Assembly (NCBI GenBank): GCA_963704885.1
Contig: CAVPIB010000007.1
Location: forward strand, 201,975-265,974
Source: an uncultured Actinomycetes bacterium
GTDB lineage: Bacteria; Actinomycetota; UBA4738; HRBIN12
Length of the DNA: 64,000 nucleotides
Direction of reading: 5' to 3'
Shown here: one piece after another, positions 4,100 through 64,000 of the stretch
Layout: the number at the start of each line of letters is the position of its first letter
Position numbering within the stretch: position 1 is the first letter of the stretch
Made by a program: the position numbers and the translations under genes
The notes under the pieces: generated by a model
The model's database searches: none
The model's input: the letters and a program-made list of their open reading frames with translations, nothing else
Told to the model about the DNA's origin: nothing

Positions 4100-6346
4100 G
4101 TGACCCGAGTGGCCGCGAGAAGAAGGGAGCGCCACATGTCGTTGTCAGGGGCCCTTTACCGCCTGGGGCGAGGGTCGGTGCGTCGGCGTCGGCTCGTCGT
4201 GGCCGTCTGGATAGTGTCGGCGGTGGGGATGCTGCTTACCGGGCGTGCCCTGGGCGCGAGCTCGGTGGACGACTTCCGGGTGCCCGGGACTGAATCCCAG
4301 CAGGCGCTTGACCTGTTGAGGGAGCGGTTCCCCGCGGCCTCCGGCACCGAGGCCACCGTGGTGTTCCATATAGCCACGGGCACGGCACGCGACGCCCAGA
4401 ACGTCGTGCTGATCGGCGAGACGCTCAGCCAGGTCGCGCGACTTCCGCACGTGCTTGGTGTGGAGAGCCCCGTGGCCGACTCCACCCCATCGGGTCGGGC
4501 GGGTGTGTCCGCAGACGGGACGATCGCCTTCGCGACGGTCCACTACGACTCCGACGCGTCGGCACTCGGTATCCGGGCCGTCGATGCGCTCGAGGAGGCC
4601 GTTGGCCCGGCTCGCGAAGCCGGGATGCAGACGGAGCTCGGTGGCGCGCTGCTGCAATCGGTCGACCGGGCGGAACCGAAATCCTCAGAGCTGTTCGGCT
4701 TGGTGGCCGCGGTGCTGGTGTTGCTGCTGGCGTTCGGGTCAGTGGTCGCGATGGGGCTGCCGATCGGCACCGCGATCCTCGGCCTGCTCACCGGCATGTC
4801 GGTCGTGAAGCTCGTGAGCCTGTTCGTCGACATGCCCACTGTGGCGCCGACGCTCGCGACGATGATCGGGTTGGGCGTGGGGATCGACTACGCCCTGTTC
4901 ATCGTCACACGACACCGCGAGTACCTCCATGCAGGACTCACGGTCGAGGAGGCCGCCGGTCGCGCGATCGCGACCTCGGGCCAGGCGGTCGTGGTCGCCG
5001 GTGCCACCGTTGTGATCGCGATCTTGGGCCTATGGATCTCGGGGATCCCGTTCGTCGGCCTCCTCGGAACCGCATCGGCGATCGTCGTGACCGTGGCGGT
5101 GCTCGCCGCCATCACGGCGCTGCCCGCGCTGCTCGGGTTCGCCGGGCAGGCGATCGATCGTCTCCGCGTCCCGCGGTTCGGCCGTCGGTCCTCCAACGCC
5201 GAAGCGTCGCCGGGTTGGCGGCGGTTCGGTCGCCACGTGGTCGACCAACCTTGGCGTCACCTGGCGCTCAGCCTCGCGATCCTCGGCGCGCTGGCGGTTC
5301 CCCTGTTCTCGATGCGGCTAGGCCAGGTGGACGCGGGGACGGCCTCGGCCGAGACTACCCAGCGCCGCGCCTTCGACCTCATGACGCAGGGCTTCGGACC
5401 GGGCTTCAACGGTCCACTGCTGTTGACCGTCGAGGGCGCCGACGCGGCAACCCTGGGATCGATCGGCGTTGCTGTGGCTGCCGACCCCGACGTCGTCGCG
5501 GTGAAGCCGCCGATGGCGAGCCCCGACGGAACGACCGCCGTCATCACCGTCGTCCCGGGGTCCTCGCCGCAGAGCGAGGCAACTACCGAGTTGGTGTCGC
5601 GCCTCCGCGATCAGGTGCTGCCCGGCGTCGTCGAGGGAACCGACGCGCAGGTCTTCGTCGGCGGCCAGACCGCCACCTATGTCGACCTGGCGGCGAAGGT
5701 CGGTGACGCCCTTCCGCTGTTCATCGGCGCGGTCGTGCTGCTTTCGTTCGTGTTGCTGACCGTGGTCTTCCGCTCGATCCTCGTGCCGCTCAAGGCCGCC
5801 CTGATGAACCTGCTGTCGATCGGCGCCGCATACGGCGTGGTCGTCGCTATCTTCCAGTGGGGGTGGGGCAAAGGTCTCGTCGGCCTCGAGGAGACGGTCC
5901 CGATCGTCTCGTTCGTGCCGATGATGATGTTCGCGATCCTGTTCGGCCTCTCGATGGACTACGAGGTGTTCCTGCTCTCGCGGATCCGCGAGGAGTACGT
6001 GCAACGGCGCGACAACGCGGAGAGCATCGTGACCGGGTTGGCATCGACAGCGAGGGTTATCACCTCGGCCGCCCTCATCATGATCGCCGTGTTCCTCTCC
6101 TTCCTGTTGAACGACGACCCGACCGTGAAGATGGTGGGCATCGGACTGGCGACCGCGGTGGCCGTGGATGCCACGATCGTCAGGATGATCTTGGTGCCCT
6201 CGACGATGGCGTTGCTCGGTGACGCGAACTGGTGGCTGCCCCGGTGGCTCGACCGCCTGCTACCGAGGATCGACATCGAGGGCGAGGCCGGACTTCCTCT
6301 TGGAAGCGAGGCACGGGTAACCGGAGCTACAGTCGAGGTCGTTTGA
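4100..6346 (+). CDS. MMPL-family (RND superfamily) membrane transporter
   Basis: 748 aa, about 12 TM helices with two periplasmic loops, MmpL-type N-terminus. The likelier start is the ATG at 4136 (AAGGGAG Shine-Dalgarno); a GTG at 4100 is also open. Confidence 0.9.
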   Translation: MTRVAARRRERHMSLSGALYRLGRGSVRRRRLVVAVWIVSAVGMLLTGRALGASSVDDFRVPGTESQQALDLLRERFPAASGTEATVVFHIATGTARDAQNVVLIGETLSQVARLPHVLGVESPVADSTPSGRAGVSADGTIAFATVHYDSDASALGIRAVDALEEAVGPAREAGMQTELGGALLQSVDRAEPKSSELFGLVAAVLVLLLAFGSVVAMGLPIGTAILGLLTGMSVVKLVSLFVDMPTVAPTLATMIGLGVGIDYALFIVTRHREYLHAGLTVEEAAGRAIATSGQAVVVAGATVVIAILGLWISGIPFVGLLGTASAIVVTVAVLAAITALPALLGFAGQAIDRLRVPRFGRRSSNAEASPGWRRFGRHVVDQPWRHLALSLAILGALAVPLFSMRLGQVDAGTASAETTQRRAFDLMTQGFGPGFNGPLLLTVEGADAATLGSIGVAVAADPDVVAVKPPMASPDGTTAVITVVPGSSPQSEATTELVSRLRDQVLPGVVEGTDAQVFVGGQTATYVDLAAKVGDALPLFIGAVVLLSFVLLTVVFRSILVPLKAALMNLLSIGAAYGVVVAIFQWGWGKGLVGLEETVPIVSFVPMMMFAILFGLSMDYEVFLLSRIREEYVQRRDNAESIVTGLASTARVITSAALIMIAVFLSFLLNDDPTVKMVGIGLATAVAVDATIVRMILVPSTMALLGDANWWLPRWLDRLLPRIDIEGEAGLPLGSEARVTGATVEVV

Positions 6347-28140: not shown

Positions 28141-29808
28141 AGGCGGGGTGGTTCTCCGCCGAGCTCGAGGGCGCCGACCTGACGCAGCTCCGATGGGGTG
28201 GACTCGAGATCGCTTCGTCGATCCAGGTGACCGTGAGAGATGAGCGGTGGGGCACGCTCCGGCCGGCGTTAGTGACCGCCGAGGTGAGCGAGGACGCCGA
28301 TCGGTTCTCGGTGAGTCTCGAGGCGACACACGGCGACGACGTCTTGGCGTGGACCGGAACCATCCACGCCTCCGCCGACGGAACACTTGGATTCGACGTG
28401 AACGCGATCGCCAAGCGTGAGTTCGTGTACCGCCGGATGGGGATCTGCGTCCAGCATCCCTGGGCGTCGCATGTTGGCGCGCGGTACGAAGCCTCCGGCG
28501 TCGGCACTGCCGCGACCGGCACCTTCCCCTCGGATATCGCGCCCCAACCTTTGGTCGACGGACACCTCGCTCCCTTCGTACCCGCGTTCAAGGAACTCTC
28601 GATCCGGTTCCCCACGGGTGTTGACGCGGGCTACGTCTTCGAAGGTGAGGACGATGGGTTCGAGCTCGAGGACCAACGCAACTGGACCGACGCCTCGTTC
28701 AAGACCTATCCGACGCCGCTGAAACGGTCGCTCCCGAGGCGGCTCCAGCCGGCGATCGGTGGACCCAGAGGTTACGGCTCACCGTCAGAGGACCCGCTCC
28801 GGGGTCGGCGGCCACCGATGGGCCGGTAACGATCGAGATCGGCTCCCCAACGGGCGGCCACATGCCGTCGATCGGCGTAACGGCACGCGCCGGACCTGTC
28901 GATCCGGGCGCGCTCCGCAGGCTGCAGCCCGCTCATCTGCGCGTAACGGTAGAACCACCTGATCGTGATCGGGTCGTGCGGCGAGCCACTTCCCTCGCGA
29001 GGGAGATCGGCGTTCCGCTGGAGCTCGTTCTCCTGTTCGATGACGAACCCGAAGGGGCGGACCTGCTCGGCAAGGCCCTCGAGGACGCCCCCCTCGCCCG
29101 GGTCCTCGCTCTACGCCGAGACGGCGTCACGACCGACGGGCGTTTCGTTGCTAGGGCGCGGCCCGATCTTCCTTCGAACGGAGCGGGGTTCTTCGGTGGC
29201 ACAGCCTCGCACTTCTCGGAGCTGAATCGCTTGAGGCCTTCGCCCGATGGGATGGACGGGGTCGCGCTGGCGATGTCTCCACAGGCGCACACGATAGATG
29301 AGCGATCGATGGTGGAAACGCTCGAGATTCAAGGGCAGATCGTGAGGCAGGTGAGCGGTTTCTCCCGTGGCCTGCCCGTTGCGGTCTCGCCGGTGACCCT
29401 GGCCGCCCGTGAACCTCCCCATGAGCAGGTTCCGATCGACCACCGCGTGGGCTCCTCGTTCGGCGCTGCTTGGACCGCGGGCTCGGTGGCGAACCTGCGG
29501 CCGCTGGCGTCTCGTCCGTGACGCTGCACGAGGCCGTCGATCGCACGTACTTGGGCTCTGCTCAACTCAGCCGCGTCTTCAGCGAGCTCGCAGCGAGGCG
29601 CGGTTCCACGCTGCACGAGGTCTCATCGTCCGAGCCACGACGGGCCCTGGCGATCGCCGCAACCGGCGCACCTGTAATGCTCGTCAACCTGACGCCGGAG
29701 TCGTGCGAGGTCAGGCTCCGAGGCGTCGTGTCGGGGAGCGGACCCTCGCGCCCTACGAGGTGGCGGCGCTCGACCTGTCCCCGTGATAGTGGGGATTCAT
29801 CGACATGA
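28137..29808 (+). pseudogene. hypothetical gene spread over three successive -1 frames (28107-28829, 28862-29521, 29470-29808): probably a single frameshifted gene of about 550 aa
   Basis: Three same-strand ORFs with no intergenic space and consistent codon bias; the frame shifts 0 to 2 to 1. No family could be assigned. Confidence 0.35.
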
Positions 29809-30477
29809 CGTGCTCGAGCATCCGCAGGCGGGCAAGCTCGCCGTCCCCGGAGGCGATCGCGTCGCGGATGCGTGTGTGCTGGTCCAGTTCCCAGTGTGCG
29901 TATCCCTCGGCGGTCTGATAGAGCTGCGGGCCAAGCTCGAAGGCCAACCTGAAGAACGGGCGGACGATGCTCGATAGGACCCGGTTCTTCGCGGCATCGG
30001 CAACCAGCAGGTGGAACTGCGAGGCCTCGACTATGGGCCGCTTCAACTCATCCGAGCGAGCGCGGTGTGGGTCCAGCACGTCCTGCATGGCGGTCGGGTC
30101 CGGATTCGTCCGGCGATCCGCAGCCAGGCGTGACAGCTCGGCCTCGATGAATCGCCGAGCCTCGAGGATCTCCGGTGTGATCACCTTCGGCTCGGCGTTC
30201 GTCTCGTCTTTCGAGATCGGCGGATGCTCCGCCACGAACACGCCCTGGCCGTGCCGGATCTCGATGACGCCGATCATGGCCAGTCCGTTCAACGCTTCGC
30301 GGACCGTCGATCGGACCGCACCCCAGTCGTTGCGTGAGCTCGCGTTCGGCCGGCAGGCGAGTGCCCGGAGAGAGGTCTTTGACGGCGTCTAGGATCTGCT
30401 GCGCGACCGTCTCGGCCAGCTTCTTGCGTGGAGCCTGGTTTGATCTGTAAGGCGGGGATCTCGTAGTTCACGGCCAT
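29753..30477 (-). pseudogene. GntR family (FadR/FCD C-terminal domain) transcriptional regulator, HTH disrupted by at least two frameshifts
   Basis: The N-terminus MAVNYEIP, then APRKKLAETVAQQILDAVKDLSPGTRLPAERELTQRLG, then AVRSTVREALNGLAMIGVIEIRHGQGVFV are in three different frames; one shift falls at a GGGG run. The FCD domain (29753-30292) is in a single frame. Confidence 0.6.
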
Positions 30478-32977: not shown

Positions 32978-33960
32978 TCAGCGGCGAGCCGCGATCGCCT
33001 CTTCGGCGGCCGCCGACGCGGCGCCGGCCGTCAGGCCGTGCGTTTCGGCGACGTAGTCGTTGGTGCGAACGAGCAGAACTCGTCTCGCACGCCCACGCGG
33101 CCGCACGGGCGCCCCGACCCCTTCGCGCGCGAGCACCTCCGACACGCAAGAGAACGATCCGCCGATGGTCGAGTGGATCTCGGCCGTCACCAGCGCGCCC
33201 GTCTCGTGCGCGAGCGCGAGCAGCGCTGCGCCGTCGAACGGCTTGATGGTGGACATCTTCGACGCGGCGGCCGATACGCCCTGGTCTGCAAGCGCCGTCG
33301 CGGCATCGAGCGAGCGACGCACCATCACGCCGCTGGTGACGATACCCACGTCGGTCCCCTCGTGCAGGATCTGCCCCTCACCGATCCATGAACGTGTGGC
33401 TTCCCTCTCCACGTATGGCGTCTCGCGGCCGAGCGGCTCGCGCAGGTGCACCGGACCCTCGAAGTAAACGAGCGCGTGCGTTGCCTCGGCCGTCTCGGCG
33501 TTGTCGCACGGGTCGATCACGGTCATGTTCGGCAGCGCTCGCATGTGCGCCAGGTCGTAGAATTCCTGGTGCGTCGGGCCGAACGTCGGGTGGATTTCCG
33601 GAAGCGCGGCCACTATCTCACGTTCGCACGGTTCAGCGCACATTGGATGGCTATGAAGTCGAGAGCTCGGCGCGTGGCGAACACGGCGAACGTGGTGGCG
33701 ACCGGTGTGAACCCTGCCTTCCACAGACCCACCGCCACGCTGATCAGGTTCTCCTCGGCCATGCCGACGTTGATGAACCGATCCGGGAACGCCTGGGCGA
33801 ACGGGTGTAGTCCCGTGACGCCGGCGACGTCGGCGGAGAGCGTGACCACGTCTGGCCGGCGTTCGCCGATCTCCAGGATCGCGTGACCGAACGGGCCGGA
33901 CTTCGCCAAGACGACCGGGTCGACCGGTGGATGGCCCAGTGCCGGCAGCGTGTCGCTCAC
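32978..33960 (-). pseudogene. tktB: split transketolase C-terminal subunit (TktB-like), frameshifted
   Basis: The N-terminal part FPDRFINVGMAEENLISVAVGLWKAGFTPVATTFAVFATRRALDFI (frame of 33613-34014) and the C-terminal part PTHQEFYDLAHMRALPNMTVIDPCD...TIKPFD (frame of 32978-34060) are in different frames. GTGA overlap with the tktA stop. Confidence 0.7.
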
Positions 33961-34800
33961 GTGGGTAGACTTCCAGCTGGCGCGTGACCGCGTCCCACTC
34001 GTCGTCGTCCACACGGACGAAGTGATTGCGTTCGCGCTCCATGATCAAGCGGAACGCCACATCCGAGCGTGGTGCGACAGACCACGGCCTTCGGTCGACC
34101 GGTCACCTCACGCGCCCGATCGAACGCGCCCAGCAGCGCCGCGATGTCGTTGCCGTCGACCTCGTCCACCCACCAGCCGAACGCGCGCCACTTCTCAGCG
34201 TGCGGCTCGATCTCCAGGACCAGGTCGCCATCGGCCTGAACGCGATTGACGTCGAATTCGTTCACCAGGTTGTCAAGGCCTTGCGCCGCGGCGAACATCG
34301 CCGACTCCCAGGTGGAGCCCTCCTGGACCTCTCCGTCGGACATGAAGTTGAAGACGCGCGCCGGGTGGCCCTTCAGGCGGAGCCCGATCGCCAGGCCCGC
34401 CGCCACACCAAGGCCGTGCGCGAGTGAGCCGCCCGTCATTTCGATTGAACGGAGGGTGCCCCTCGTACGTGGACATGATGAGCGTGGTGCCGTCGGCACC
34501 GTAGGTGTCAAGATCCTCGCCCCCCAAGTGGCCTGCCTCCGCGAGTGCGGCCCACAGTCCGATGGAGTAGTGGCCCGCCGAGTAGATCAGGCGATCGATA
34601 TCGGGAGAGCGGTCGACCGGGTCGTAGCGCATCTCAGATAGGAGTAGGACGGCGAGGATGTCGGCCACGTCCAGTCCCTGACCCACGTATCCCTCACCTT
34701 TGCCGGCGGACATCCGCACGACGTTCTTGCGTATCTGCTTTGCTCGGGTACGGAGCTCGTCTATGGACGCGCCAGTTGATCTTCGCTTCGGTTGCAGATG
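33957..34800 (-). pseudogene. tktA: split transketolase N-terminal subunit (TktA-like, TPP-binding), with at least 2 frameshifts
   Basis: KQIRKNVVRMSAGKGEGYVGQGLDVADILAVLL...SAGHYSIGLWAALAE in one frame and GSLAHGLGVAAGLAIG...MSDGEVQEGSTWE...AFGWWVDEVDGNDI in another. No clean start codon in any frame. Confidence 0.65.
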
Positions 34801-34903
34801 CCCTCCTAGTCAGAAGGTGAGCAGATAACCTGCTGACTCTCAGTATACGATGGCTGGAGATCGGGGTCGACCGGGCCGGGACGCCCGGCCGTAGGCTTAG
34901 CCC

Positions 34904-35785
34904 GTGATCGTGCACCTGGTGGACGGGACGTACGAGCTGTTCCGCTACCACTTCGGGGTGCCGTCACACGTGACCGACGACGGCCGCGAGGTCGCCGCCA
35001 CGCGAGGGGTGCTCGGCTCCATGCTCTCCATGCTCGAGGGCGGTGCTACCCACGTGGGTATCGCCACCGATCACGTCATCGAGTCGTTCCGCAACGCGTT
35101 GCTCGAGAGCTACAAGACGGGCGAGGGCGTCGATCCCGTGCTCCGCTCGCAGTTCGAGCTGCTCGAAGACACGCTGAGGGCAGTCGGGTTCTGCGTGTGG
35201 CCGATGGAGGACTACGAGGCCGACGACGCACTCGGTTCGGCCGCGGCAGTGGCCGCTGCCGACATAAGGGTCGAGCGGGTGATCATCTGCACGCCCGACA
35301 AGGATCTGGGCCAGTGCGTCAGCGCCGACGGGCGGGTCGTGCAGTTCGACCGGCGGAAGGAGTCGCTGACCGACTTCGCCGGCGTCGTCGCGAAGTTCGG
35401 AGTGGAGCCTGAGAGCATCCCGGACTATCTGGCTCTGGTCGGCGACACGGCCGATGGGATCCCCGGCGTGCCCGGCTGGGGGGCGAAGACCTCGGCCACG
35501 GTGCTGGCCCGCTACCGGCATCTGGAAGACATCCCGCTACAGGCGGGCCTCTGGGACATCTCCGTGCGGGGGAGGGCGAACCTGCTGCGAACGCTGGCCG
35601 ATCGGTTCGAGGACGCGTTCCTCTACCGGCGGCTGGCGACGATCGACACGAACGCGCCGACGATCAGTGACGTCGAGGAGCTCGAGTGGACGGGTCCGGC
35701 CGAGGGCTTCGAGGAGTCGCTGAGGGCGATCGACGCCGATGGGTCCATCGCGCGCATCATGAGGCTCACCGACACGCGCGGTTGA
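34904..35785 (+). CDS. 5'-3' exonuclease (Pol I-type 5' nuclease / flap endonuclease domain protein)
   Basis: MIVHLVDGTYELFRYHFG..., EADDALGS, and an H3TH region GDTADGIPGVPGWGAKTSATVL. Intact 293 aa. Confidence 0.85.
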   Translation: MIVHLVDGTYELFRYHFGVPSHVTDDGREVAATRGVLGSMLSMLEGGATHVGIATDHVIESFRNALLESYKTGEGVDPVLRSQFELLEDTLRAVGFCVWPMEDYEADDALGSAAAVAAADIRVERVIICTPDKDLGQCVSADGRVVQFDRRKESLTDFAGVVAKFGVEPESIPDYLALVGDTADGIPGVPGWGAKTSATVLARYRHLEDIPLQAGLWDISVRGRANLLRTLADRFEDAFLYRRLATIDTNAPTISDVEELEWTGPAEGFEESLRAIDADGSIARIMRLTDTRG

Positions 35786-35873
35786 GCGATCGTCCTCCCG
35801 GGTCGGCGACGCTGTTTCCGACCGGGGGCCACGTCACGCTAGGCTCTTTGCCTTCGCCGGAGGGAGCCGAGAC

Positions 35874-36986
35874 ATGCCGACACGCCACACGCCATACCAC
35901 CAGCGGTTCATGGAGCTCGGGGCTGAGATGGGGGACCGGATCGGGTTCGACGCGGCGGTCGTGTTCTCATCGACCGAGAAGGAGCACCTGGCCACGCGCG
36001 AAGGCGTGGGGCTGTACGACGTCTACTACCAGGGGCCCATCGACATCAAAGGGCCGGACGCGCAGGCGCTCCTGGACCATGTGCTGGCGCGTGACGTGCC
36101 GCGGCGGTTGGCCACCGACGGTCAGGTGCTCTACTCCTCGGTCTGTAGCGCGGAGGGCGGGATGATCGACGACCTCACCGCTTACCGACTGGGACCTGAG
36201 CACTACTGGCTGATCGCCACGCCGGCCCGCGCCGAGATCGTCGGACTCACGTGACCGAGCACGCACGCGATCGCCGCGCCTTCGTGACCAACTGCATCTC
36301 GGGCACTGCGTATCTGTCCGTGCAGGGCCCGGGTTCGCGCGAGCTGCTCGCGCCGCTCGCGGAGGCGGATCTGTCGACCGACCGGCTCCCCTACTTCAGG
36401 TGTGTTCGAACCGTGGTCGCCGACGTGCCCACCCTCGTGTCGCGCACGGGCTACTCGGGCGAGCTGGGGTACGAGCTCTACTACCCGCGCGACTACGCGC
36501 TCCACATGTGGGACACGCTCACGAACGCCGGCGCCACGCCGTGCGGGCTGGGGGCGCTGCGCAGCGTTCGCATGGAGAAGAAGTACCCGCTCTACGGCCT
36601 GGACGTTAGCGAGACCACGTCGCCGCTGGAGGCGGGTCTGGGATGGGCGGTCGACCTGGATGGGTCGGACTTCATGGGACGCGACGCGCTGATGCGTCAG
36701 CGCGATGAGGGGATCGCACGGCTCCTCACGGGGATCGAGTTCCCCGACCTGTCGTTCGTCCCGTCCGCTGGGGACGCCGTGGCGACCGCCGACGGCGAGC
36801 CGCTCGGCACGCTCACGTCCGCGGACCGCGGCTGGTTCCTGGGCAAGGCGCTGGCGATGGGCTATCTGCCGTTCGACCTCGCCCGGTTCCACCGTCACGG
36901 TGACCTCGGCCGACGGCACCCGGGGCGAGGGCGTGACTTCGGATCGACCGTTCTACGACCCGGACGGAACGCGCGTCCGCGCTTAG
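35874..36986 (+). pseudogene. gcvT: glycine cleavage system T protein / aminomethyltransferase family gene split over three frames (35874-36254, 36251-about 36900, 36705-36986)
   Basis: YDVYYQGPIDIKGPDA (N), LSVQGPGSRELL..VSRTGYSGELGYELYYP..LRSVRMEKKYPLYGLD..EAGLGW (middle) and MGYLPFDLA..VTVTSADGTRGEGVTSDRPFYDPDGTRVRA (C) in frames shifted by 1 nt each. Confidence 0.7.
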
Positions 36987-36997
36987 GGTGCCTGGCG

Positions 36998-37688
36998 ATG
37001 AGCGCATGGAATGTTCTCGGCAGGCGCGCCCTGGTGACGGGCGGCAACCGTGGCATCGGCCTGGAGGTCGTGCGGCTCTTGGGTCCGCATTGGCTTGGAG
37101 GTCTTCCTAGGCTCGCGCGATCCGGACGCGGGGGCGACCGCCGCCTCGGCGCTCGGATCGCCGGGTGTCACACCGGTTCGCATCGACGTAGCCGACCCCT
37201 CGAGCGTGATGGCCGCTCACGATTCACTGGCGCCGGCCGGTATCGACGTGCTGGTCAACAACGCCGCGGTCAACCCACGAGGTCGGGTGACGCCGGAGGA
37301 GGCCGACCGGGCTTGGCAGGTGAACACGCTGGGGTGTTGGCGCGTGACACAGGCGTTCCTGACGCCGATGCGTGAGCACGGCTGGGGCCGGATCGTGAAC
37401 GTCTCTTCCGAGGTGGCCGCGAACGCGCATGAGCAGCGGGGTGGGGGCATCTACGCCGCGACGAAGATCGCTCTGAACGTCATGACTCGCGCGCTCGCAG
37501 AAGATCTAGAAGGGACCGGGATCTTGGTGAACGCGATCAGTCCGGGGTGGTGCCGATCGGACATGGGTGGGGCGAGTGCACCGCGATCGGTCGAGCAGGG
37601 TGCTGCGAGCATCGTCTGGGGTGTGACGCTCCTCGACGACGGTCCGTCCGGAGGCTACTTCCAGGACGGCGAACCGTTCGCCTGGTAG
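36998..37688 (+). pseudogene. SDR family oxidoreductase with a frameshift near 37080
   Basis: MSAWNVLGRRALVTGGNRGIGLEVVRLL in one frame; VFLGSRDPDAG...VLVNNAAVN...YAATKIALN...PGW in the next. The near-duplicate segments IGLEVV and IGLEVF flank the shift. Confidence 0.65.
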
Positions 37689-49882: not shown

Positions 49883-50572
49883 ATGGGTGAGGCGAGCCAG
49901 GCCGGCGACATGGGCGCTTCGGGCATCGCGGTGCCCCGGGCGGAACCTCGCTGGCCCATGGCGGTCGCCGTGCTCGCCGCCATCCTGCTCCAGGTCGGCA
50001 CCCCGCATCGGGGACGCGTTCAGGCTTGGTGGGTCTTCCCGTTGCTGGAGTTCGCGTTGCTGGTGGTCGTCGTCCTGCGCGATCCGGGCCGCATCGACCG
50101 GCGCAGCCGTGCGGCGCGGCGATCCACGATCGTCCTGGTCACCGTGATGACCATCGGCACCATGGCGGGGGTCATCGTGCTGATCTACGACATCCTCGCG
50201 GGTATCAAGGGGATCAACGCTACGGACCTGCTAGGCAGGGGCGCAGCGATCTGGTTCACGAACGTGATCGTCTTCAGCCTTTGGTACTGGGAGCTGGATC
50301 GAGGCGGACCCGCTGAGCGAGCAGCCGACTCGGGGAGGCCGCCGAGCTTCGCGTTCCCCGAGAACGCGATGCCCGAGTTCGCCGAGGAGGGTTGGCGCCC
50401 GAAGTACCCGGACTACCTGTACCTGGCATTCACCAACGCCACGGCGTTCAGTCCTACGGACACCCTTCCGGTGCGAACATGGGCGAAGATGACCATGCTC
50501 CTGCAATCCGTGGTTTCGCTGATCACCGCGATCCTGGTGATCGCGAGGGCGATCAACGTCCTGCCGGGATAG
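49883..50572 (+). CDS. DUF1345 family membrane protein
   Basis: WFTNVIVFSLWYWELDRGGP and C-terminal TMLLQSVVSLITAILVIARAIN are typical of DUF1345; the start codon is uncertain. Confidence 0.65.
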   Translation: MGEASQAGDMGASGIAVPRAEPRWPMAVAVLAAILLQVGTPHRGRVQAWWVFPLLEFALLVVVVLRDPGRIDRRSRAARRSTIVLVTVMTIGTMAGVIVLIYDILAGIKGINATDLLGRGAAIWFTNVIVFSLWYWELDRGGPAERAADSGRPPSFAFPENAMPEFAEEGWRPKYPDYLYLAFTNATAFSPTDTLPVRTWAKMTMLLQSVVSLITAILVIARAINVLPG

Positions 50573-50575
50573 GAC

Positions 50576-51208
50576 ATGGCGGACGAGAAGCGACCGCGAT
50601 GGGAAGCCCTCATCGAGATCGTTGAGGTGACCTTCCTCGCCATCGTGGCGATCGCGACCGCTTGGAGCGGCTATCAGGCGACGCAGTGGGGCGGCCTCCA
50701 GTCGGAGCGTTACGGGCAGGCGTCGAGCACCAGGTTCGCGGCGGATGCGCTCTCCACGCTCGGGGGCCAGGAGCTCGTGGCGGACTCCGCCGTGTTCACC
50801 GCGTGGCTCGAAGCTCATCAGAAGGGCGACGCGGCGCTCGAGGATCTGCTCGTCCGCCGCCTCAGCCCCGAGTTCGCCGAGGCGTTTCAGGAGTGGCTGA
50901 AGACGGATCCCTTCGAGGACCCGTCGGCGCCGCCGGGCCCCGGATACATGCCGGGGTTCACGACCAAGCATCTGGAGGAGGCCAAGGACCTGAACGATCA
51001 GGCGTCGGCGGCGTTCGCCGAGGGCACCGAGGCTCGCGCCACGGCCAACAAGTACGTGCGCGACACGGTCCTGCTGGCTTCGGTCCTGTTCTGTGTGGCC
51101 ATCGCGCAACGCTTCAAGATCCGTGGGGTGCGGATGGGGGCCAACGCCGTCGCGCTCACGCTGCTGATCTACACGCTGACGACGCTCGTCGTGCTTCCGC
51201 GGGCCTGA
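50576..51208 (+). CDS. hypothetical membrane protein (N- and C-terminal TM helices, central soluble domain)
   Basis: 210 aa; AGGACATGG Shine-Dalgarno-like sequence upstream; starts 4 nt after the previous stop. Confidence 0.55.
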   Translation: MADEKRPRWEALIEIVEVTFLAIVAIATAWSGYQATQWGGLQSERYGQASSTRFAADALSTLGGQELVADSAVFTAWLEAHQKGDAALEDLLVRRLSPEFAEAFQEWLKTDPFEDPSAPPGPGYMPGFTTKHLEEAKDLNDQASAAFAEGTEARATANKYVRDTVLLASVLFCVAIAQRFKIRGVRMGANAVALTLLIYTLTTLVVLPRA

Positions 51209-51247: not shown

Positions 51248-53449
51248 CTAGTCGAGCAGGGCGTCGAACGCCTTCTGAGTGTCGGTCAACCGTTCCGCCA
51301 GCGTCCCGGCGAGCCATCGGTGAAGCGCCGCTGCCAGCTCCGGCTCATCGGCCTCCAACCGCTCGATGGAGGCCCGGCTGAGCCTAAGGACCACGCTCGG
51401 CGTCTCGGCCACGACGTCGGCCGTGCGCGGAACACCCGTGTAGAGGGCGATCTCTCCGACCACCACCCCCGGTCGCACCGAGCGCAGGCGCATCCGCGTC
51501 CCCTCGGGCGTCACCATCTCGACGCTCAGGCGGCCCGACTCCAACACGAACACATCCTCGGGCGGCTCGTCTTGGCGTATCAGCACGGTCCCTTCCGCGA
51601 GCGACACGTGTTCGAGGTATGTCTCAAGACCCGCCGGCATGCCGGCGAGCGACTCGGTAGCGGCGACCCCCGCGAGCCGCTCGGCCTGGGCGTCTTGCAG
51701 CAGGACGTCCTCGCACCGCTGCAGGCCTCGATCCAGATCCGGCTCGAACCGCACGACCCCTTCAGAGGGGACCACGCCGCCGCGGGCCAGCTGCTCGCGC
51801 ACGCGATCCGAGGCCCCCGCTAACACCAGCTCGAACCCGCTCGCCTGGGCGAGGTGGGTCACCTTGACGAAGGACATCACCGCCGAGGCGTCCATGCCCG
51901 TCACCTGTCGCAGGTCCATCAGCAGGAACCGCGGCGCCGTCGTCTCCACCCGCTTGCGGATGCGTTCGAGCAGGCCGCTAGCCGAGCCGAAGAACACGAA
52001 CCCGTGCACCCGCAGGATCTGAACCCGCTCGCCCATCTCGCGCAGGGATGCTCGCTCCGCGGGTGGACGGTCGACGTTGCTGCGGTAGGTGTCCCCGAAC
52101 GCGACCTCGCGCACCAGTTCGATCCGACCGTAGCTGACCGCGAACAAGACGACGGCCATCACCAGGCCGATCACCACGCCGGGCAGGAACCCCTTCGTGA
52201 TGATGCCCGCGAGGATCACCAGGACGACGGCGTACTCGACCTTCGGCAAGCTCCGCCGCTTGTCCCAGACCCACTCGACGATGAAGGCGAGGCCTAAGAA
52301 CACCAGCACGCCGCCGACGATCATCCGCGGGATCAGCTCGATGACCGCCGCGCCGAACACGACGGCGGTGATCGGGACGAGCGAGGCGACGAGCCCGGCG
52401 GTCCGCGTGTTGACGCTCATGCGCTCCGCGAGCGCCGTCAGGCTGAGCGCGTGGTACCCGGGGATCCCACCGAGCGCCCCGGAGATGACGTTGAGGAAAC
52501 CGGCGTCGCGGAGCTCCTGGTTCGTGTCTAGGTCCCGGTGAAGCACGATCTCGGTTCCGCTGATGTTGAACAAGATCGCGATGGACGGCGACGAGCACCG
52601 CGGCGCGATCTCCGTCCACTGTCCGAGCACCGCCGACCAATCGGCGCCCGTGATTGCGCGCAGGGTCCACGGTTGCCACAGCCGCACGGACTCGAACGGC
52701 CCGAGGAGCCATCTCCCCTCCTGCGCGGCGTCGATCGAGGAGCCGGTGACGAGCATGCCGATCACGAACAGGGCGAGCCCGATGCGCGAGCACGATCGGG
52801 ATGACCAGAGGCTTCTTCACCAGCCGGACGGCGAGGAGCAAGATCACGCCGAACGCGAATGCTGGAAGCCAGTGCTTGAGCGTCTCCGAGTTGAGCATCA
52901 GTCCGACCGTGCGCAGGTGCACCTCCACGCCCGAGGCGACATAGAGGCCGCCCTTCAAGAGCAGCCACCCGGTGCCGGCGAGGAAGCCGCCGACGACCGG
53001 GTACGGCACGAACCGGACCAGGTCGCCCAGCCGGAAGGTCCCGAGCGCCGAGAAGACGACACCGCAGAGGATCGTCACGACCAGGGTCGCGGCTATGACG
53101 GTGAGGAATACGTCGGGGGCTTCGTAGTTGCCCAGGGACCCTGCCGTGGCATCCCTCGCGATCGAAGCGGCCTTCGCCGCCGTGGTCGCTGCCACGACCG
53201 CGAGGACGGCCGCCGCCGCGTCCTGCACGCTTCCCACCACCCCCGGCGACCCGCCCTCCAGGCCAAGATCCCCAGCGTCAGTGCGGCAGCCACGAGGTAC
53301 AGGCCGATGCCATCGGCGAGGCGACCGACGAGGAGGCCGCCGAACACGAAGGCGGCGAACGCGATCGCGAGGACCGCCTCGACGACGCCGATGATCACGC
53401 CAGCGGCGAGCGAGGTGAGCATCCCCACGGATCGTCGCTCCTCGGACAA
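51248..53449 (-). pseudogene. SulP family anion transporter with STAS and C-terminal cyclic-nucleotide-binding domain, copy A, with at least 2 frameshifts
   Basis: N-terminus (53093-53449 frame), TM core VVGSVQDAAAAV...VPYPVVGGFLAGTGWLLLKGG (51978-53240 frame), and IGMLVTG...STAS...cNMP domain VFVLESGRLSVEM..GVVVGEIALYTG (51248-52765 frame). Confidence 0.7.
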
Positions 53450-53468
53450 CGGCCTCCCCCTCGCAGTT

Positions 53469-55654
53469 CTAGTCGAAGAGGGCCACGACGGCCCTCTGAG
53501 TGTCGGTCAGCCGTTCCGCCAGCGTCCCGGCGAGCCATCGGTGAAGCGCCGCTGCCAGCTCCGGCTCTTCGGCCTCCATCCGCTCGATGGAGGCCCGGCT
53601 GAGCCTAAGGACCACGCTCGGCGTCTCGGCCACGACGTCGGCCGTGCGCGGGATACCCGTGTAGAGGGCGATCTCTCCGACCACCACGCCCGGGCGCACC
53701 GAGCGCAGGCGCATCGGCGTCCCCTCGGGCGTCACCATCTCGACGCTCAGCCGGCCCGACTCCAGCACGAACACGTCGTCGGGCGGCTCGTCCTGGCGGA
53801 TCAGCACCGTGCCCTTCCGCCAGGGGCATGCGCTCGAGGTATGTCGAAAGACCCGGCGGCATGCCGGCGAGCGCCTCGCTCGACGCCGTCCTTTTCCCCG
53901 AGCCGCTCGGCCGGCGCCCTGGAGCAGAACGTCCTCGCACCGCTGCAGGCCTCGATCGAGATCCGGCTCGAACCGAGACGACCCCTTCAGAGGCCACCAC
54001 GCCGCCGCGGGCCAGCTGCTCGCGCACCCGATCCGAGGCCCCCGCTAACACCAGCTCGAACCCGCTCGCCTGGGCGAGGTGGGTCACCTTGACGAAGGAC
54101 ATCACCGCCGAGGCGTCCACGCCCGTCACCTGCCGCAGGTCCATCAGCAGGAACCGCGGCGCCGCCGTCTCCACCCGTTTGCGGATGCGCTCCAGCAGGC
54201 CGCTCGCCGAGCCGAAGAACACGAACCCGTGCACGCGCAGGATCTGAACCCGCTCGCCCATCTCGCGCAGGGATGCTCGCTCCGCGGGCGGACGGTCGAC
54301 GTTGCTGCGGTAGGTGTCCCCGAACGCGACCTCGCGCACCAGTTCTATCCGGCCGTAGCTGACCGCGAACAAGACGACGGCCATCACCAGGCCGATCACC
54401 ACGCCTGGCAGGAACCCCTTGGTGATGATGCCCGCGAGGATCACCAGGACGACGGCGTACTCGACCCTCGGCAAGCTCCGCCGCTTGTCCCAGACCCACT
54501 CGACGATGAAGGCGAGGCCTAGGAACACGAGCACGCCGCCGACGATCATGCGCGGGATCAGCTCGATGACCGCCGCGCCGAACACGACGGCGGCGAGCGG
54601 GACGAGCGAGGCGACGAGCCCGGCGGTCCGCGTGTTGACGCTCATGCGCTCCGCGAGCGCCGTCAGGCTGAGCGCGTGGTACCCGGGGATCCCACCGAGC
54701 GCGCCGGAGATGACGTTGAGGAAACCGGCGTCGCGGAGCTCCTGGTTCGTGTCGAGGTCCCGGTGCAAGGACGATCTCGGTGCCGCTGACGTTGAACAGG
54801 ACCCCGATCACGGCTACGAACACCACGGTGACGATGCCGGCGGACTTGGCCAAGCACCGCCGACCAGTCGGCGCCGGTGAGGGCGCGGAAGGTCCACGGC
54901 TGCCACAGCCGAGTCGAGTCGAACGGTCCGAGCATCCAACCTCCCCCGAGCGCGCGTCGGTGGTCGAGCCCGTGACGAGCATGCCGATCGCGAACAGCGC
55001 GAGCCCGGCCCCGATGACCACCGGGATCACGAGCGGCCGCTTCAACACCCGGGTCAGGACCAGCAGGATCACGCCGAAGACGACGGCCGGAACCCAGTGG
55101 GCCAGCACGGCGGCGGGCCGTAGGTCGCCGACCGCGCGCAGGGAGACCTGCATGTCCGCCGCGACTCCGATGCCACCCTTCAGGAGCAGCCACCCCGTTC
55201 CCGCCAGGAATCCGCCCACGACCGGGTATGGCACGTACCGGACCAGATTGCCCAGCCGGACCGTCCCCAGCACCAAGAACGTGATGCCCGTCAGGATCGT
55301 CACGACCAGGGTCGCGGCGATGACGGTGAGGAACGCCCGTTGGGGGCTCCCGTAGGCGTCCAGGGCCGTGCTCGTGGCGACGACCGCGAGCACGGCCGCC
55401 GTCGCGTCCTGCACGCTGCCCACCACGCCGCGGTTGCCGGCCCTCCAGGCGAGGATCGCGAGCGTCAGCGCGCCCGCCACCAGGTACAGGCCGATGCCGT
55501 CGGCCAGGAAATACGCGAGGTAGCCGCCGAACACAAGGGCGGCGAACGAGATGACCAGGACCGCCTCGACGGCGCCGATGATCAAGCCGGCGGTGATAGA
55601 GGCGGCCAGCACTCCCCCAGATCGTCGCTGTTCGGACACGGAGCCCCCCGCCAC
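53469..55654 (-). pseudogene. SulP-STAS-cNMP-binding transporter, copy B (tandem paralog), with at least 3 frameshifts
   Basis: Nearly identical segments to copy A at the nucleotide level. N-terminus plus TM in the 53987-55654 frame, middle in the 53605-54768 frame, and cNMP domain in the 53469-53807 frame; an extra out-of-frame piece appears in 54663-55193. Confidence 0.7.
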
Positions 55655-60873: not shown

Positions 60874-61264
60874 CCGAGCCCCTCCCCTTAGATCCTCGAT
60901 GATGTGCGAACGCTGTGTATCAGCACTGCCTCTGTCGGTCAACCCGCGCAGAACGGACCGGACCCGGTGTGGGTCCGGTCCGTTCGTCTGCTTGTCCCCT
61001 CACGAGCGCTTCGGACTCTTGCGAGGCCTCGTCCGGTAGACCAGCCGGAACCCGTGAGGTCGGTGAGATGGTTGGATTCTGCCGGTCTCCCGGCGAGCGG
61101 GCGAGGTGGTGAGCCCCGGCCCGCGAGGGATGGCTCAGCAGCCACTCACCTCGAGGGTCGCCTGCTGTCTATGCAAGTTGGACCACCTCCTTCCTCTCGT
61201 GCCGCACATCCTGCGGCAGTCCTGGCGGGAAGGCAACAACGAAAGCTGTCGTTATGGTTCGTGT

Positions 61265-63641: not shown

Positions 63642-64000
63642 TCAGCGAGGCTGGGTCGCGCCGGGTGTCAACACCTCGAGTCCCAGTGCGGACGCTGCAT
63701 GGGCTTGTCGGACGTCGTAGGTGATCACCGGGCCCACGTCGGGGCGCAGCGAGAGCGCGGTCGCCAGGTGGATCGCATCGAGCGTCCTGAGGTCTTTCGG
63801 ACCGAGGGTCGCCGCTTCACGCAGGATGGCGTCGTCGATCGGGACCAGAGCGATGCCGTCCAGGATCCGCTCGGCGCGCGCCGCCGACCGGCCGGCTCGA
63901 CGGGTGGCGATCACCACCTCGGTCCACGCGATGTGGCTCGAGACGACCTCCGGATCCGTATGGAGGGCCTGGACCAACTCGGCCGTCTCCGGCTCACTTA
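63642..64000 (-). CDS. PIN-domain (VapC-like) protein, partial; N-terminus lies beyond the window end
   Basis: LRTLDAIHLATAL...VITYDVRQAHAASALGLEVLTP C-terminal PIN motifs. The reading frame stays open to position 64000. Confidence 0.65.
   Translation of the reverse strand, partial: SEPETAELVQALHTDPEVVSSHIAWTEVVIATRRAGRSAARAERILDGIALVPIDDAILREAATLGPKDLRTLDAIHLATALSLRPDVGPVITYDVRQAHAASALGLEVLTPGATQPR

Follow-up and report, generated by a model that had tools for sequence, protein, structure and literature searches.

Are two adjacent transporter genes that are both broken by frameshifts in a deposited genome sequence dying genes, or are they intact genes read with errors? This question is raised by a tandem pair in a 64,000-nucleotide (nt) stretch from an uncultured Actinomycetes bacterium (contig CAVPIB010000007.1 of GenBank assembly GCA_963704885.1; hereafter the window), where two copies of one gene, A and B, occupy positions 51248-55654. 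Each copy encodes a SulP/SLC26 transport core, a STAS domain and a domain that binds cyclic nucleotide monophosphates (cNMP). The original prediction for this DNA took the pair for a duplication followed by the inactivation of both copies, within a wider pattern of decay. Our analysis points elsewhere: with a probability of about 0.8, the locus is an intact, functional two-gene SulP operon, and its 11 frame-breaking insertions and deletions (indels) are consensus errors of long-read-only (probably Nanopore) sequencing, not inactivating mutations.

The two copies lie head-to-tail on the minus strand, and each contains one version of a block that is nearly identical between them:

53469-55654, minus strand: upstream gene (copy B), with SulP/SLC26 core, STAS and cNMP-binding domains (Pfam matches and frame-aware alignment)
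51248-53449, minus strand: downstream gene (copy A), with SulP/SLC26 core, STAS and cNMP-binding domains (Pfam matches and frame-aware alignment)
53977-54766, minus strand: near-identical block in copy B, comprising the C-terminal part of the transmembrane core and the STAS domain, a tract converted with copy A (95-99% identity per 100 columns, no indel inside)
51752-52540, minus strand: corresponding near-identical block of copy A, paired with 53977-54766 (repeat comparison and per-column identity)

Comparison of the interval with itself bore out the predicted head-to-tail arrangement of ~2.2-kb paralogues, with direct repeats 2,221-2,227 nt apart covering most of 51248-55654. The spacer between the copies measures 19-46 nt, and its counterpart measures 46 nt in L001, a contig of the short-read metagenome-assembled genome (MAG) "Actinobacteriota_AC_51" (ENA ERZ24842091) to which we compare the window throughout. 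In a global alignment, copies A and B are 87% identical at the nucleotide level, with 66-82% identity per 100 columns over the 5' ~40%, 95-99% in alignment columns 1000-1700 and 92-98% at the 3' end. The longest exact run common to both is 105 nt (at 52373/54598), and the long identical stretches that had been noticed at the 3' ends, near 51262 and 53480, correspond to exact runs of 57 nt (51290/53511) and 72 nt (51359/53580) close by.

Copy A has intact orthologues in the proteins P0001 (724 amino acids, aa) and P0121 (726 aa), and copy B in P0003 (712 aa) and P0002 (709 aa). Comparison with an intact homologue had been proposed as a way to place the indels, and it did so: frame-aware alignment to P0001 and P0003, together with the comparison with L001, located four frame-breaking indels in copy A and seven in copy B, as follows:

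52586-53240, minus strand: copy A indels, -1 at about 53240 and +1 at 52784, then -1 at 52605 compensated by +1 at 52586, so that all four sum to zero
54772-54955, minus strand: copy B, cluster of three indels, -1 at 54955, +1 at 54842 and +1 at 54772, immediately upstream, in gene direction, of the near-identical block
53814-53973, minus strand: copy B, cluster of four +1 indels at 53973, 53912, 53884 and 53814, in the linker between the STAS and cNMP-binding domains, just 3' of the block

Eight of the 11 are insertions and three are deletions, mostly of a single base. Each copy had been described as broken into three or four frames; the frameshifts are indeed there, but this description understates the damage to copy B, which as given consists of eight segments in three frames. 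The members of the compensated pair in copy A are 19 nt apart, and together they turn a conserved peptide of a transmembrane segment, GIVTAVLVAS, into EIAPRCSSPS. This altered peptide forms part of a 502-aa fragment of copy A (P0122) that is publicly annotated as a gene. After frame correction, copy A is identical to P0001 at 691 of 723 aa (95.6%), and copy B, after its seven corrections, is identical to P0003 at 685 of 711 aa (96.3%).

The pair is not peculiar to this genome. Over the following stretch the window can be aligned from end to end with L001:

45479-56483, no strand assigned: collinear with L001 at 95.1% nucleotide identity; both SulP genes are intact in L001, and seven other genes are without a frame-breaking indel

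The SulP genes of L001 encode 709 aa and 724 aa and are syntenic with the window pair. Intact pairs are also present in a second related locus, L002, and on a 24-kb contig that bears P0003 and P0121. We collected 134 related loci from genomes and metagenomes, and the majority of those long enough to show the pair do so. The same gene order, with N-terminal halves of A and B type and unchanged neighbours, recurs in L001, L002, L003, L005 and dozens more, from short-read and long-read assemblies alike. In the 5' bins, each window copy is nearest to its own L001 orthologue (90-97% identity, compared with 67-83% in the cross-comparison). The pair is thus an ancient, widely conserved two-gene arrangement of soil Actinomycetota.

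Selection on the frame-corrected genes resembles that on intact ones. Relative to L001, the ratio of nonsynonymous to synonymous substitution rates (dN/dS) over corrected codons is 0.117 for copy A, 0.223 for copy B and 0.088 for the central block of copy B, compared with 0.132 for the seven flanking genes pooled, and the 1,425 corrected codons of both copies contain no in-frame stop. When L002 is used as an outgroup, the window branch of copy A carries 39 synonymous and 9 nonsynonymous codon changes versus 30 and 8 on the L001 branch (Fisher P = 0.79), while for copy B the counts are 19 and 12 versus 36 and 16 (Fisher P = 0.48); this outgroup-polarised test reveals no excess of nonsynonymous change on the window branch for either copy. 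The intergenic DNA of the L001 alignment holds 32 substitutions and 7 indels in 488 nt, or ~4.6 substitutions per indel, so 11 neutral indels should have been accompanied by about 50 neutral, mostly nonsynonymous substitutions, which are not observed. Since purifying selection on the pair equals that on its intact neighbours and on the intact orthologue branch, decay is not supported. The predicted sequence of duplication and then inactivation is therefore not supported, the pair being ancient and its corrected frames being under purifying selection.

The distribution of broken copies among assemblies is consistent with sequencing error. Frame-switched SulP copies make up 21 of 70 in MAGs of the Microflora Danica (MFD) project (0.26 per kb) versus 2 of 148 in other assemblies (0.007 per kb; Fisher p = 6e-10). 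These switches were scored solely against the intact protein P0001, because all-against-all tblastn overcounts them in SulP genes, where the query open reading frames (ORFs) are themselves frameshifted (short-read loci themselves would then show 0.30 per kb). Apparent frameshifts in flanking genes likewise occur at 0.178 per kb in MFD loci versus 0.017 per kb elsewhere, and those in MFD flanks are patchy, with 23 of 55 having a neighbour within 700 nt when 11.6 would be expected (P = 0.006). The MFD-LR MAGs are Nanopore-only and were assembled with Flye, followed by one round of Medaka polishing, and indel errors are discussed by their authors (PMC12313526). The 502-aa fragment of copy A is recorded, exactly, from a 275,265-bp contig in NCBI and ENA, a size at which the relatives are MFD MAGs, and the window may come from an assembly of this type. 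In both SulP and flanking genes, then, frameshifts are 10-30 times commoner in MFD-LR loci than in assemblies from the same clade, as would be expected of indel errors in Nanopore-only MAGs.

The positions of the switches are informative as well. In independent MFD MAGs they lie at similar protein coordinates (about aa 61, 201-237, 360-377, 546, 585-590, 640 and 692), these being boundaries of high-scoring segment pairs (HSPs) that are imprecise in the variable linker. Because the recurring positions are seen almost only in Nanopore-only MAGs, context-dependent errors are indicated. The MFD loci with recurring switches are L009, L019, L022, L034, L035, L050, L070, L074 and L076, and in several of these MAGs one paralogue only is affected.

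Where the indels fall within the pair may be understood from the way the paralogues evolve. In the window as in L001, L013, L014 and L024, paralogues within a genome are 95-100% identical in the 3' bins and 65-90% identical in the 5' bins. Over the central block, the window paralogues are more alike (95-98%) than the window and L001 orthologues are (93-95%), and in L001 and L024 the converted tract reaches the 3' end. Recurrent gene conversion homogenises the 3' ~60% of the genes, which encodes the late transmembrane helices and the STAS and cNMP-binding domains, with a conserved 5' boundary, and the 5' ~40% remains distinct. Concerted evolution by gene conversion is familiar from tuf genes and rRNA operons. 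The SulP pair shares with such tandem paralogues a defined, sharply bounded tract over which copies within a genome are more similar than orthologues between genomes, in several lineages; it differs in that conversion is confined to the 3' ~60%, while the 5' 40%, encoding the first part of the transport core, is divergent in every lineage examined.

None of the 11 indels lies inside the near-identical block, which at 1,579 nt makes up 36% of the sequence (P = 0.007 for such avoidance under uniform decay), and 9 of the 11 flank it at distances of up to 200 nt (P = 4e-4 in a post hoc comparison with even scatter over the sequence outside the block). We propose that polishing at the block edges would be disturbed, and indels introduced, by reads that belong to the other copy or to co-occurring strains whose conversion tracts differ; clustering at the edges is what this would produce, since foreign reads would contaminate the pile-up there. 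This edge clustering at a near-identical paralogous block is one respect in which the pair differs from indel errors of Nanopore-only MAGs in general, and another is the local indel density of 2.5 per kb, ~10-fold above the MFD average of 0.26 per kb.

Several observations weigh against consensus error and have to be set beside the evidence above. The indels are mostly single-base insertions outside long homopolymers, which is unlike the classic Nanopore error signature; Sereika et al. (2022) put residual indels down to homopolymers, a cause that we reject here from the sequence contexts. In the 11-kb comparison with L001, all 11 coding indels are in the SulP genes and none is in ~6.2 kb of seven neighbours, a pattern that true pseudogenes would match. 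The synonymous rate is also higher in the SulP genes (dS 0.16-0.17) than in the pooled flanks (0.10). Moreover, no contig of the same strain was found in scans of genome contigs (best match 84%) or metagenome contigs (best match 80% at the amino acid level), so that the case for artefact is indirect. True double pseudogenisation, with both paralogues inactivated and decaying by small indels within a wider genome decay, would account for the restriction of the indels to the two SulP genes and for their lack of homopolymer association, as well as for the frameshifts in the deposited sequence, the 502-aa fragment that is publicly annotated as a gene and the fact that other genes of the window are split too. 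We nevertheless consider it unlikely, given that selection is not relaxed (dN/dS of 0.12 and 0.22 against 0.13 in the flanks), nonsense codons are absent, the window branch matches the intact-gene branch in nonsynonymous changes and the ~50 accompanying substitutions are missing. It would also leave the ~30-fold higher frequency of broken homologues in Nanopore-only MAGs than in other assemblies from the same clade, and the complete avoidance of the block, without explanation.

The similar protein coordinates of frame switches in independent MAGs could instead be taken as a sign of real, recurrent frameshifting at mutational hot spots, either as contingency-type on/off switching or as programmed frameshifting, but the recurrence is almost limited to Nanopore-only MAGs and is not seen in the 148 copies from other assemblies, and the coordinates, being HSP boundaries, are imprecise in the variable linker. 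The sites are not the long homopolymers or simple repeats that contingency loci use, and seven shifts in one gene are more than any known recoding mechanism can decode. This makes hot-spot frameshifting at the pair extremely improbable, and we regard as very unlikely the broader proposal that real hot-spot frameshifts across soil Actinomycetota bring about parallel inactivation or reversible switching of one or both cNMP-regulated SLC26 transporters. If this were true, the phenomenon would be visible only in long-read assemblies, with short-read assemblers collapsing the variants. Repeat mis-assembly was raised in the original prediction, and in this case a single real SulP-cNMP gene would have been turned by the assembler into a duplicate or a chimera of two strains. 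A 790-nt block at 95-99% identity with exact runs of up to 105 nt could confuse assemblers, and a Logan k-mer contig of run ERR12037370 (1,553 bp) reaches only 72 nt into copy A from its 3' end. However, independent short-read assemblies agree with the window on the number and order of the copies; the same pair with the same halves and neighbours is present in L001, L002, L003, L005 and dozens more, short-read and long-read; the copies are distinct genes, because their N-terminal 40% is only 68-81% identical; and each is nearest to its own L001 orthologue in the 5' bins. A collapsed or expanded repeat is thus scarcely credible. The suspicion of an assembly artefact was misplaced for the duplication, which is real, and well placed for the indels, which are probably long-read consensus errors.

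Beyond the SulP pair, Pfam checks of candidate ORF pairs, adopted in place of a frame plot of third-position GC content that proved too noisy, identified further split genes in the window. A transketolase-like gene at 32981-34809 (minus strand) is divided among at least three frames, with the Transketolase_N profile matched at positions 7-106 and 104-256 and Transket_pyr at 9-103 and 118-168 in separate pieces, a patch of several frameshifts that resembles the SulP pair. The gene gcvT at 35763-37372 (plus strand) has a frameshift near 36200-36250, where the GCV_T profile passes from one ORF (positions 2-114) to the following one (116-255), and its GCV_T_C match is cut at position 55 of 80, suggesting another break. 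Breaks in these two genes, both of housekeeping type, add to the resemblance of the window to the Nanopore-only assemblies. In a GntR/FCD regulator gene at 29756-30388 (minus strand), the match to the GntR DNA-binding profile is limited to positions 37-64, and the N-terminus may lie in another frame or be lost. Most candidate split pairs turned out to be plain adjacent genes (VIT1/TetR, Usp, ABC permeases).

Two further observations concern the surroundings of the pair. The Logan contig of ERR12037370 also encodes, exactly, the 210-aa and 229-aa (BPSS1818 domain) proteins of window positions 50576-51208 and 49883-50572 (plus strand), and this run probably represents the source sample. On the other side, window positions 60951-61242 and 63660-63995 are ~90% identical to L002 positions 2538-2827 and to L002 positions 5993-6328, a PIN-domain toxin gene beside a PhdYeFM antitoxin gene. 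As these stretches are upstream of the SulP pair in L002, the neighbourhood has been rearranged between relatives.

What, then, do the two genes encode? Sulfate_transp, STAS and cNMP_binding (Pfam) are all obtained from the ORF fragments of each copy, and the frame-corrected proteins give full-length matches with scores resembling those of intact orthologues, in agreement with the domain order predicted for each copy. On the corrected proteins, Sulfate_transp (PF00916), which has a cut-off of 23.2 bits, reaches 88.9 bits in A and 83.5 bits in B, over positions 2-378 of a 380-position profile, and STAS (PF01740) ranges from 50.8 to 54.8 bits across both copies. The domains that follow the transport core are located as follows:

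51761-52027, minus strand: STAS domain of copy A (PF01740, 54.8 bits)
53992-54252, minus strand: STAS domain of copy B (PF01740, 51.4 bits)
51356-51607, minus strand: cNMP-binding domain of copy A, with phosphate-binding cassette GEIALYTGVPRTA (PF00027, 70 bits, residues 387-470 of a 505-aa ORF)
53577-53807, minus strand: cNMP-binding domain of copy B, with phosphate-binding cassette GEIALYTGIPRTA (PF00027, 64 bits, in the ORF at 53469-53807)

The cassette, read from the translations as GEIALYTG(V/I)PRTA, is intact in both copies and invariant in the homologue alignment. An architecture of this kind had been called uncommon. Instead, 1,840 database proteins match at E <= 1e-10 and the same three Pfam domains are present in 120 of the 120 top matches, so the combination of SulP, STAS and cNMP-binding domains is common in soil Actinomycetota. 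Scores for characterised subfamilies (NCBIfam) are far under their cut-offs, at 75 bits against 880 for BicA, 74-83 against 614 for DauA and 110-115 against 380 for sulP (TIGR00815), and a substrate is for this reason not assignable. Judged by these sequence matches, A and B are ordinary members of a widespread, uncharacterised family of SLC26 transporters with STAS and cyclic-nucleotide-binding (CNB) domains. A search for experimental studies of a SulP-STAS-CNB fusion found none in the searchable literature.

Both halves of the protein have well-studied relatives. Like the SLC26/SulP transporters with a STAS domain (BicA, DauA/YchM, SLC26Dg, Rv1739c), copies A and B match Sulfate_transp across the whole profile, followed by STAS, and by sequence they match the solved structures of prestin (7v73, E = 1e-14), SULTR4;1 (7lhv) and the BicA core (6ki1), with 3mgl and 3oir for the STAS domain. 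They differ from these transporters in the extra C-terminal cNMP-binding domain, in their conserved tandem arrangement and in having only distant similarity to characterised members. The C-terminal domain, with its PF00027 scores of 64-70 bits, aligns with the CNB domains of Pat (4onu), CRP-family proteins, PKA-R, SthK and MloK1, and both copies contain the cassette for phosphate binding, G-E-x-A-x(6)-R-T-A. In the channels MloK1 and SthK, in Pat and in CRP, the CNB domain accompanies a pore, an acetyltransferase or a DNA-binding domain, whereas here a secondary transporter carries it after its STAS domain.

From this domain order we infer that A and B are transporters regulated by cNMP. Each protein would comprise a transport core in the membrane, a STAS domain in the cytosol and a CNB domain at the C-terminus, and binding of cAMP or cGMP may act via the STAS domain to tune anion transport. 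If SLC26 dimers and CNB-regulated channels are a guide, the CNB domain probably couples cyclic-nucleotide levels to anion transport. The distinct 5' halves of the two genes suggest that the proteins either differ in substrate or form a heterodimer.

As a case of genome decay this locus is unimportant, because the decay is most probably not real. It illustrates that tandem paralogues in long-read-only MAGs can look like pseudogenes because of clustered frameshifts, and that such cases can be unmasked without reads, by dN/dS over corrected codons, an outgroup-polarised branch test and comparison across sequencing technologies. The only points that may be worth pursuing are the CNB fusion and the pattern of gene conversion, in which the regulatory 3' part of the genes is kept near-identical and the 5' part, encoding the first part of the core, stays distinct. 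Retained in soil Actinomycetota, this uncharacterised SLC26-STAS-CNB operon is a testable candidate for cyclic-nucleotide control of bacterial anion transport.

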